6,374 nucleotides of DNA from a virus (Monodnaviria > Loebvirae > Hofneiviricota > Faserviricetes > Tubulavirales > Inoviridae). Shown here in pieces: positions 1,845 to 4,092 of this stretch (position 1 is the stretch's first letter; each line of letters opens with the position of its first letter). Below the pieces are notes generated by a model. That model was not told the origin of the DNA. It saw only the letters and a program-made list of their open reading frames with translations, and did no database searches. Location of the stretch: positions 1 to 6,374 of the IMG/VR virus record IMGVR_UViG_2609459825_000013. One strand, 5' to 3'. The position numbers and the translations under genes are program-made.

Positions 1845-2090
1845 ATGTCTCACGAGATTGTTTACTACGATTACTTCCCTAGTTTTGGTTCTGACTTGAC
1901 AGCTCCTGTTTACTGTACAGCCCGTGTTGATGGTCTTTGGTTAAAATGTGACTCCTTTGATGAGCTGATCAATTACTGCCTTCGTTTGATTGGTCCAGAG
2001 TTCGTTCTTGTTCCTCTTTCAGTTCCTTCCGGATCGTGGGTTGGCTATCTGGATATGGTTGAGGCTTCCGATATGGTTTCGGGGGAGTAG
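1845..2090 (+). CDS. Hypothetical 81-aa protein immediately upstream of rep
   Basis: ATG at 1845; stop TAG at 2088-2090 lies within the rep ribosome-binding site, 1 nt before the rep ATG, which suggests translational coupling. No strong SD of its own; no recognisable motif. Confidence 0.4.
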
Positions 2091-2091
2091 T

Positions 2092-4092
2092 ATGACTGAA
2101 TCAGCCATCCTCACAGCGTATAACTCCATCGACGCGGCATCTGTTGCCCTTGGTCGTCCCTGTCTGACGCTGCCCGAACGTGAGCATTTTCGGGCTGAGC
2201 GCGATGTTGCCACTCGCAACCTTGTCACGCTTTCCCGCCAGTATCGTGATGAGGTCGGGGTACTGTCTTCACAGCTTGCCCTGCCACGTAACACGCAGGT
2301 TGACCGTGTGATTTACGGAATTAACTGCACGGATTTATCTCTCGCTGACAGGGGTAAGGCTGCCGGACTGGTTTCACAGTTTGGCTCGTTTTCCTTCACC
2401 GTGGCACACGCTTTCTGCCGTCTTGTTTATCAGCTCGGTGTGAAAAATGCGCTGATGGCGCTTGAGTCCGCGCACCGTTTTGCTTTCTTCAATCAGGACG
2501 GAGACCCTTATGAATTCTCGCTTTTCTGCACTGATGAACAGCTTGCTGAGGTGGCTGATTCGGTTGTTCGTGACTGCCTTGTTTCTCGGGCCATTTATAG
2601 TGATGTTGCAGAACAGCACCTTCTCAATGTAATGGCCTATTTTCAGGCCATCTCCGGCTTTGATTTCGCGCCCGTTTATGCCACTTATCATGAGCGTTAC
2701 GGCGATGAGGGATTGCTTAAACGTCTGACTGATTTGGCTTTTGTCACCCGTTTCCTGCGGGTTGTCCGTGACCAGCGGGTCAATGAGGTCTGCCGCATGC
2801 TCGGCATACTGAACCGCAACGCGCCTTATATTTCCGACTGGCACCGCGACCTCTTTGCTGTCCGCAGTAAACGCGTGAAAAATTATCTCCGGTCCTCCGG
2901 CGTCTTTGATGCCTTTAATGAGCTGGTCTGTACGCTGGAAGATGCGCATAACGCCTCAGTCTCGAATCCGAAAAACCGGATTGCTGAACTCTGCGTTCGT
3001 GGAAAGGCCGTCTGTGAACTGTCCGAAGATATGGGGCTGTCCGGCTACTTCATCGTGCTCACCACGCCGTCACGTTTTCACCCGACGACCAGTTTTAAGG
3101 TTGCCGGAAAATGGCATTCTCGTCCGAATAAAAAATGGTGGGAAGCAGGTTGCCCGACCGTTAAGGATTCGCACGCCTGGCTGAATACCGTCTGGCGTCG
3201 GGTCTGCCGCAGGCTGGATAAAGCCGGTATTCAGATACCCGGTCTGCGCACGGTCGAGCCTCATGCTGACGGTACAACGCACTGGAATTTCCTGATTTAC
3301 TGCAATCCCCATGAGAGCGCAACGGTGCTGGCCATTTTCCGTGAAGAGGCCATGCGCGATGAGCCGGATGAAAAGGGGGCGAAAGAGCACCGTATTTGTA
3401 TTGAGGCTATTGACCCTGAAAAGGGTGATGGTTTCCGTTACATCGTGAAGTACATCACCAAAATGGCGGGTGATGTCAGTGCGGATGGTATTACCGCCCT
3501 GAATGACCGTTATTCTGCCCGTTCATTCTGTGATGCCGTCAGCCGTGCCGCCTGCTGGCAGAAAGCAACGCGCCTTCGCCTGTTCCAGTTCTTTGGCGTT
3601 CCCTCCGTTACGGCTTACCGCCAGATGCGCAGCTTCCGCGCACCGCTTGAGGCGCATCATATCAATATGCAGCAGTTCACGCCGCAGCAGGTCGCCGAAC
3701 TGGAAGCCATCCGCATGGCCTGTGATGCAGGCGATTTCCGGACCTATATCCTGCTGAACGGCGGTTTCTTCTGTTCTGAACGTCTGCTTCGCCCGTTTTA
3801 CGTTCAGCCGCAGGAAGGTGGTAAACCCCGTTTTAACCGTTACGGTGAACCCTGCGCACCGGTGATTTCCGGTTTCATGTTTGGCCCCGTTCCGGTCATA
3901 ACCCGTTTTATGGGCTGTGTTGTCCGCCGTATGACCCCCGCAGAAAAAATCCGCGCAGAGGAAGTCAGAAGCGGCAGCAGCTATGAATCTGTGTTTATTT
4001 CGTCGGCTTCACGACACCGCACGACGCGCTCCCGCGCGGCGGGTGGGGGCGGCGAAGCCGACCCTTGGACTTGTGACAATAACTGTCCCTGA
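2092..4092 (+). CDS. Rolling-circle replication initiator of the P2 gpA / phiX174 gpA superfamily (666 aa)
   Basis: ATG at 2092 preceded by GGGGGAG (2081-2087). Two-tyrosine active-site motif [10 protein letters not shown] (Tyr codons 3439-3441 and 3451-3453, residues 450 and 454 from this start) matches the Y-x-x-K-Y-x-x-K pattern of phiX174 gpA (YVAKYVNK) and, to my recollection, the Y450/Y454 positions of P2 gpA. His-containing motif [10 protein letters not shown] lies about 55 aa upstream. The track's start at 1990 is a TTG extension overlapping the 81-aa ORF. Confidence 0.85.

Follow-up and report, generated by a model that had tools for sequence, protein, structure and literature searches.

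Location of ORF81 and Its Junction with the Replication Gene

The window analysed here is the full 6,374 nt of IMG/VR virus record IMGVR_UViG_2609459825_000013 and comprises most of an inovirus (filamentous phage) genome. The subject of this study is the 81-codon open reading frame (ORF) located directly 5′ of its replication gene rep, hereafter ORF81. ORF81 lies on the plus strand at 1845..2090 (ATG at 1845, TAG at 2088-2090) and encodes a small acidic protein, while rep (2092..4092, plus strand) encodes a replication endonuclease of 666 aa that belongs to the GpA family (phage P2 gene A). No alternative start for ORF81 exists between the in-frame stop at 1824-1826 and the ATG at 1845. The rep ATG is at 2092, which leaves a gap of a single nucleotide (T2091) after the ORF81 stop. 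An earlier note on this DNA had described an 81-codon ORF with its stop 1 nt before the rep ATG, and this description was correct except for its end coordinate of 2092, which is 2 nt beyond the true stop, as the TAG ends at 2090.

The sole Shine-Dalgarno (SD)-like element 5′ of ORF81 is GGUG at 1836-1839, pairing with the anti-SD at -3.0 kcal/mol versus -8.6 kcal/mol for the rep SD, so that the proposed lack of a strong SD of its own was borne out. The rep SD, GGGGGAG (2081..2087, plus strand), is located 4 nt 5′ of the rep ATG and within the last three sense codons of ORF81 (TCG GGG GAG). The stop codon had been placed inside this SD; it lies instead in the spacer between the SD and the ATG. 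The 3′ end of ORF81 forms a lineage-specific tail (codons ~70-81; 2052..2078, plus strand) in which the 9-nt direct repeat GATATGGTT occurs twice. This tail, which is not present in the relatives of 60-73 aa, joins the conserved core of the ORF to the GpA-type rep.

The geometry with a 1-nt gap is that of one allele, common to the window and two IMG/VR viral contigs (L007 and L008), in which the ORF is identical to ORF81 over 81/81 residues and has the same junction with rep. The nearest relatives (L001 from E. coli TD225-C4, L004-L006, and protein P0001) read GAG at the position of the window's TAG, and their ORF is consequently three codons longer (EYD) and overlaps rep by 8 nt, ATGACTGA. 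Since the closest relatives read through in this way, the 1-nt gap is best regarded as an allele-specific variant of an overlapping arrangement, in which a private GAG-to-TAG change would have shifted the stop from the 8-nt overlap to the 1-nt gap.

A Conserved Family of Small Acidic Proteins

A word-indexed search with ORF81 alone returned one relative. Searches begun from the 65-aa ORF of E. coli 504211 and continued with a family alignment recovered 44 proteins (43 usable relatives) from filamentous prophages of E. coli, Proteus, Providencia, Photorhabdus, and Xenorhabdus and from metagenomes; all the relatives with a source name are labelled as ‘hypothetical’ or ‘uncharacterized’. The family alignment showed invariant residues Y7, G15, A26, S37, and L41, together with near-invariant D9, W32, and E40. 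ORF81 itself matched phrog_3104 (E 4.7e-5, residues 1-71 on profile positions 1-67 of 69), a profile also matched by 42 of the 43 relatives with a best E of 2.2e-24. In addition, the ORF was called independently by PGAP in L001 and L003 and by gene calls in at least 20 contigs.

Comparisons of coding sequences were used to examine selection at the codon level. The ratio of nonsynonymous to synonymous substitution rates (dN/dS) was 0.10-0.32 in most pairs of the 65-aa clade, at synonymous divergences (dS) of 0.3-2, with one pair (L029-L030) at 0.46, and it was 0.26 between the window and L001. The window and L004 differ by one synonymous and four nonsynonymous changes, which are too few to judge. 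Mean differences by codon position followed the order 3>1>2. The check on codon-level selection suggested in the earlier note thus points to purifying selection, and of the two roles offered there, the small accessory protein is supported by the conservation at the amino acid level and these substitution patterns, whereas an upstream ORF with an irrelevant peptide is opposed by the selection on the protein. Because of the 43 homologues, the PHROG match, and the purifying selection, ORF81 is far more than a chance ORF, and these lines of sequence evidence indicate that it is a real, conserved protein-coding gene under purifying selection.

Sequence searches of Pfam, NCBIfam, and PDB returned no match for ORF81 or its family; tblastn against GenBank phages found nothing for ORF81 or its Proteus member, only the divergent member P0036 reaching Vibrio phages; and no locus was confirmed among species-representative genomes. 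An exhaustive HMMER search of 1.8 billion cluster representatives gave five matches, one of them truncated and one a spurious repeat protein, and no fused (Rosetta-stone) forms of ORF81 were found in it. A functional study of this ORF was not found in the literature, and the small ORF is not mentioned in the YpfPhi review, the VALGphi paper, or the Vipa/f237 paper.

In Vibrio phages Vf33, Vf12, VfO3K6 (f237), and VALGphi6/8, the replication initiator is directly preceded by a 71-aa ORF that forms the core of phrog_3104. This Vibrio ORF matched phrog_3104 with an E of 1.4e-42 and the family profile with an hhalign probability of 93.7%. Like ORF81, to which it is homologous, it lies 5′ of rep; it has a pI (isoelectric point) of 4.05, overlaps the rep start with the best SD by 17 nt, and contains the rep SD (GGGGGUG), as in the ORF81 family. 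The relationship is remote, with ~24% identity of ORF81 to the family consensus over 41 aligned columns, and, compared with phrog_3104, ORF81 has eight inserted residues following the first strand, reads WLKC instead of the WDFY motif, and is extended by a tail of 11 residues. Furthermore, the Vibrio ORF precedes a Rep of the Rep_trans/RstA type, whereas ORF81 precedes a GpA-family Rep.

The 71-aa ORF is not annotated in NC_002362 (VfO3K6) and is absent from the f237-like ORF1-10 scheme (PMC10790759). In NC_002362.1 (L031), the phrog_3104 ORF lies at 1029-1244, with rep starts at 1168/1228. The annotated start of the VfO3K6 rep (Vpf402) has no SD, and the ATG 20 codons downstream is preceded by GGGGGUG (-9.7 kcal/mol); Rep has probably been annotated from a start that lies too far upstream. 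The start of the 402-aa Rep of Vf33 lacks an SD, the start 20 codons downstream having GGGGGUG. A fusion of the small ORF with Rep in Vf33, considered on account of a match ‘under vpf402’, was rejected, as the ORF is separate and in another frame.

Closer to ORF81 is the 65-aa ORF of E. coli dif-integrated filamentous prophages of the RstA type (E24377A, 504211; WP_000017777), which is ~50-57% identical to it. The two share the promoter/operator region, the first 10 codons, and the RstR-like repressor (all identical), and the 65-aa ORF likewise adjoins its rep, by a TAATG stop/start overlap. Unlike ORF81, it precedes a Rep_trans (PF02486) Rep and lacks the insertion and tail of ORF81; its C-terminal GYQE codons (GGN UAU CAG GAG) themselves form the rep SD. 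Taken together, these comparisons indicate that ORF81 adds a new and divergent member to a known family without an assigned function, here apparently grafted onto another Rep family.

The ORF81 protein has 81 aa, a pI of 4.05, and a net charge of about -9, and all 43 members of the family are acidic (pI 4.05-4.63, net charge -5 to -13). The window protein was modelled by AlphaFold2 from the family alignment, which raised confidence; the model has a mean predicted local distance difference test score (pLDDT) of 75 and a beta-beta-beta-alpha-beta core formed by strands 4-11, 23-28, 31-35, and 53-57 and helix 38-48, with a tail of low confidence from about residue 61. Foldseek searches with this model against PDB and BFVD found nothing significant. 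The same topology and size are found in the N-terminal domain of HicB-type antitoxins/UPF0150 (PDB 1wv8, 3k6q, 2yzt), but the scores for this likeness are marginal, Foldseek gives nothing (E > 0.5), there is no profile match to Pfam HicB, and ORF81 has neither an adjacent HicA-like gene nor a DNA-binding domain, so it is a resemblance only. Nor does the protein have the features of a Cro-like switch repressor, given its single core helix, the absence of a predicted helix-turn-helix, and its pI of 4.05. As the protein is small and strongly acidic in all members, DNA binding is unlikely, and we infer a protein-binding rather than a DNA-binding role.

Gene Order and Coupling Geometry Across the Family

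At every rep-bearing locus examined, Rep is preceded by the small ORF, and this in turn by a small divergent ORF that is RstR-like where compared. This order is borne out by independent gene calls, with the small ORF abutting or overlapping Rep, and it was observed in the window, L001, L003, L004, L015-L020, L023, and L026-L032. The place of the repressor is taken at a few loci (L030 and L023) by an IS110-family transposase or by a transposase fragment; in the metagenomic locus L030, a gene with IS110-family transposase domains occupies 1470-2444, directly 5′ of the small ORF.

The distance from the stop of the small ORF to the rep start with the best SD is -17 (Vibrio), -13, -11, -8, -4, -1, or +1 nt, and the rep SD is always located within the last codons of the small ORF, the relatives carrying AGGAG, GGGAG, or GGGGGUG. 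Most members end in a conserved C-terminal G-Y-Q/R-E encoded by GGN UAU CAG GAG, in which AGGAG doubles as the rep SD. Most of these rep SDs are strong (-7.4 to -11.1 kcal/mol), L020 (-3.0) and L023 (-4.3) being weaker exceptions, while the SD of the small ORF itself is mostly weak (median about -3 kcal/mol), with stronger ones at three loci, L001 (-6.4), L023 (-8.1), and VALGphi8 (-9.3). Spacings of -1, -4, and -8 have been reported as enriched coupling motifs (PMC12548453). The stop/start arrangement with rep that the earlier note had pointed out is therefore conserved across the family, and in position ORF81 and rep match a coupled pair, being co-oriented with stop and start a few nucleotides apart. 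The arrangement suits coupled translation, making coupling plausible. A programmed frameshift fusing ORF81 to Rep was also considered and rejected, since, relative to ORF81, rep is read in the +1 frame in the window and in the -1 frame in L003-type loci, and hence no frame shift is consistent among them.

A variant of this gene order is present in Providencia stuartii (L021/L022, 3501-3903), where a prophage remnant without rep, single-stranded DNA (ssDNA)-binding, or coat genes holds the small ORF and, overlapping its end by 8 nt, a weakly DUF2523-like gene, followed by Zot and a secretin. This remnant was listed in 61 sequence-collection blocks, and 24 contigs were read.

The RstR-Like Repressor Gene and Putative Promoter Region Upstream of ORF81

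Divergent from the ORF81-rep operon is an RstR-like repressor gene (1495..1710, minus strand; ~70 aa, probable ATG at 1707). Its product matches phrog_2503 (E 1.5e-27), is 68% identical over 56 aa to the CTXphi ‘RstR-like protein’, and has a pI of 9.6; at the DNA level the gene shares ~70% identity with rstR of pre-CTX, CTXphi, and VAI1/2. An 8-bp palindrome, CGCATGCG, occurs at 1772-1779 and again at 1815-1822, 43 bp apart; these are the only two exact copies within the window, and both belong to inverted repeat I4. They bracket the -35 and -10 elements of a sigma-70-like site, TTTACA-18-TATGAT (1782..1811, plus strand; 10/12 matches), found by a consensus scan only, which gave three sites in the region versus 2.1 expected by chance. 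Transcription from this site would give a 5′ untranslated region of ~25 nt ahead of ORF81. The promoter-like sequence is conserved 5′ of the L003 and L004 homologues, and the palindrome region is likewise kept in L003 and L004 and replaced in L001, whose repressor differs. The pair of palindromes may thus be considered candidate operators of the RstR-like repressor, with a putative regulatory role.

The co-divergence of the small ORF with its neighbours was examined by means of identity matrices of 11 loci, using Spearman's rho and the Mantel test. The small ORF was found to co-diverge both with Rep (Mantel p 0.002, rho 0.62) and with the gene that follows it (p 0.008, rho 0.45), but not with the repressor (p 0.06, rho 0.21). 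In the window, L003, and L028, the repressors are 100% identical while the small ORFs are 51-57% identical and the Reps belong to different families; between L028 and L029, the small ORFs are 83%, the Reps 88%, and the repressors 38% identical. In the DNA alignment, recombination breakpoints are located at the ORF's first codons and precisely at the ATG of rep. Owing to this co-divergence with Rep, the identity contrasts, and the breakpoints, ORF81 is best assigned to the replication module and not to the immunity module. The arrangement in the window would be a mosaic, with the core of ORF81 linked to a GpA-type rep by a short lineage-specific tail supplying the SD.

ORF81 as the Probable Head of a Replication Operon

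The reading that we favour, with slightly better than even credence, is that ORF81 is a real gene heading the repressor-controlled replication operon of a CTXphi/YpfPhi-like phage, coupled to rep and accessory to replication. Ribosomes ending the translation of ORF81 would re-initiate at rep, or would hold its start site open, so that a single mRNA would yield ORF81 and Rep in linked proportions. The protein could act as an accessory partner or modulator of Rep, of the ssDNA-binding protein, or of a host factor via protein-protein contacts.

Several observations weigh against this interpretation. Both the translation of ORF81 and its coupling are deduced from sequence, and the 81-aa clade holds few substitutions. 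The co-divergence with Rep, which is no stronger than that with the next gene, may reflect physical linkage and not interaction; as the two correlations are similar, co-evolution specific to Rep could not be separated from linkage. As for the RNA, a hairpin (CUUCCGA/UCGGGGG) is predicted over the rep SD, but the rep SD region is no more stable than shuffled sequence (z -0.03), and no SD-hiding structure is common to the relatives, so that the pattern of coupling by RNA unfolding was not found. A scan of 1100-2300 with Rfam gave chance-level matches only. Since rep has a strong SD of its own, while that of ORF81 is weak, rep could be initiated independently.

The distribution of rep points in the same direction. 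Among 5,426 complete E. coli genomes, searched with the 5′ 609 nt of rep as the query, this rep was present at 90-96% nucleotide identity in 39 genomes (69 places), and the ORF81 body in one of these 39, the other 38 being without it. In CTXphi, which has a homologous RstR, 69 nt without an ORF precede rstA. Because 38 of the 39 genomes with this rep, and CTXphi, lack such an ORF, ORF81 appears to be dispensable for Rep activity, and a dependence of Rep on it cannot be general. The conservation of the ORF, proposed earlier as a check on its relevance, therefore has two sides: the ORF is kept across a wide clade of phages and is missing from most phages carrying this rep. Coupling probably adds to rep expression in this phage, and Rep would function without needing ORF81.

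The other rep loci examined show what can stand in this position. At some, in several E. coli genomes, an IS110-family transposase gene ends 2 nt 5′ of rep (L033 1-892 and L035 1-889), and this gene may represent an alternative integration module of these filamentous prophages. At others, rep follows a leader that combines promoter hexamers of the TTGAC type, GTTAAC palindromes, and an SD-less, U-rich stretch, ...gtgcgttttttattcgtttttATG; this native, SD-less rep leader is found in the sister prophages L002 (4020-4099), L034 (820-900), and L036 (820-900). The repeated GTTAAC palindromes beside a TTGAC-type hexamer would be an operator system unlike that of the window. For YpfPhi and CUS-1, an RstR-like gene directly followed by rep has been described (PMC4266046). 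The homology of the other rep loci to the window starts exactly at the rep ATG, and in the window the ORF81 tail appears to have replaced the native rep leader and to supply the SD. The sole complete E. coli genome with the ORF81 body, NZ_CP035860.1 (E. coli TD225-C4), carries three copies of it and four of rep, which suggests multiple or tandem filamentous prophage copies.

A bolder form of the favoured reading, which we regard as rather doubtful and put forward tentatively, is that the whole family constitutes a dedicated replication partner of inoviruses, a small acidic subunit produced in fixed ratio with the HUH Rep by termination-reinitiation and binding Rep or the ssDNA-binding protein. 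If so, a dedicated partner would set origin nicking, strand switching, or copy number, and it would span phages from f237 of pandemic V. parahaemolyticus to E. coli prophages while missing from canonical gene maps.

Possible Alternative Roles of ORF81

An unlikely alternative is that ORF81 is a switch protein, the counterpart of a Cro protein or antirepressor, with the acidic product neutralizing the basic RstR-like repressor or locking the productive state. ORF81 does occupy the classic Cro position, just 3′ of the operator/promoter and transcribed away from the repressor gene, the two proteins carry opposite charges, and in the rep-less Providencia remnant the small ORF is kept beside a small divergent ORF. 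A specific antirepressor role is weakened by the membership in the replication module: the small ORF does not co-vary with the repressor, as identical repressors accompany ORFs of ~50% identity and similar ORFs accompany repressors of 38% identity. A Cro-like mode of DNA binding is opposed by the pI of ~4 and the lack of a predicted helix-turn-helix. The CTX family does have antirepressors (RstC, as annotated), and RstC from the RS1 satellite of CTXphi, with 74 aa, is a small CTX-type accessory protein acting on the lysogeny switch. However, it is located 3′ of rstB and not between rstR and rstA, unlike ORF81, and homology between the two was rejected at an hhalign probability of 1.5%.

It is distinctly unlikely that ORF81 is instead a host-directed accessory, such as a DNA mimic, an inhibitor acting on a protein of the nucleoid, of repair, or of defence, or a superinfection exclusion protein, for which the position before rep secures early expression. 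The extreme acidity of all members would suit such a role, and many phages with the same rep do without ORF81. The family also precedes two unrelated Rep families, Rep_trans (PF02486) and GpA (PF05840), and is therefore not tied to one Rep structure. Against a host-directed role, there is no NCBIfam match, the PHROG matches are only to function-unassigned families, and the fold searches matched no known DNA mimic or anti-defence protein. Moreover, the fixed position and strict overlap with rep across distant hosts would be unusual for moron-like cargo, which usually lies at module borders.

That ORF81 is a pure leader, in which translation alone matters and the peptide has no function, is very improbable. 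The weak SD of its own, the end at the rep start, the rep SD inside it, and the conserved coupling geometry are all features that a leader would have. Leader cistrons of this kind precede plasmid rep genes, such as tap-repA of R1 and repY-repZ of ColIb-P9; they resemble ORF81 in that a short cistron ends at the rep start with the rep SD inside. The plasmid leaders are far shorter, show no conservation at the protein level, and open a defined inhibitory structure under antisense-RNA control, whereas ORF81 is a conserved protein with no significant inhibitory structure and none that is conserved as an occluding one among the relatives. The sequence, length (60-84 aa), acidity, predicted fold, and dN/dS below 1 all point to selection at the protein level. 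Finally, a chance ORF or annotation artefact, which the lack of a strong SD and of Pfam or NCBIfam matches might have suggested, can practically be dismissed in view of the conservation, the purifying selection, and the independent annotators.

Filamentous prophages of the CTXphi, f237, and YpfPhi types influence both virulence and fitness in cholera, pandemic V. parahaemolyticus, plague, and E. coli K1. A repressor, Rep, an ssDNA-binding protein, and coat and assembly genes make up the standard maps of these phages, and many of them carry one further conserved gene at the head of the replication operon. If the ORF81 protein modulates Rep or the lysogeny switch, it would represent a new control point for phage production; if it merely loads ribosomes onto rep, this would be ordinary operon design. 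For the window, the analysis provides a corrected annotation and flags an overlooked gene in medically relevant filamentous phages.

Remaining Features of the Window

The product of rep matches Pfam PF05840 (E 1.1e-48) and phrog_91 (E 2.4e-128), and PGAP calls it a ‘replication endonuclease’ with the identical start MTESAIL. Upstream of the repressor, the C-terminal part of a secretin (65-1123, plus strand) is followed by a non-coding region with a long hairpin (about 1124-1494). The hairpin, at 1175-1272, is imperfect, has a 6-nt internal bulge, and folds as ssDNA at -41.1 kcal/mol (z -10.4). Its outer arms, AGTGCGCATAA ... TTATGTTGAAA, resemble the XerC/XerD arms of E. coli dif, and it has the appearance of a folded attP as in CTXphi-type phages; its inner stem, AAAAGGCCGCTGCG/CGCAGCGGCCTTTT, might in addition serve as a terminator after the secretin gene. 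Related prophages adjoin hipBA, and the E. coli dif site lies near hipBA. With an RstR-like repressor divergent from rep, a putative folded attP with dif-like arms, and probable integration at dif, the phage has the features of dif-integrating inoviruses of the CTXphi/YpfPhi type.

Two overlapping hydrophobic small ORFs, one of 51 aa on the minus strand and one of 63 aa on the plus strand, are located at 1276-1480; among the relatives, PGAP calls the minus-strand one (L002, L003) and the gene caller the plus-strand one (L004-L006). Downstream of rep, the plus strand encodes a 141-aa protein (4123-4548), small membrane and coat-like ORFs (about 4553-5123), and, from about 5185, a Gly/Ser-repeat protein that is a probable receptor-binding protein. 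A tandem array at 5792-6362, with a period of 78 or 39 nt, ~6.6 copies, and a 97% match, encodes the Gly/Ser-rich linkers of this protein and reaches the end of the window.

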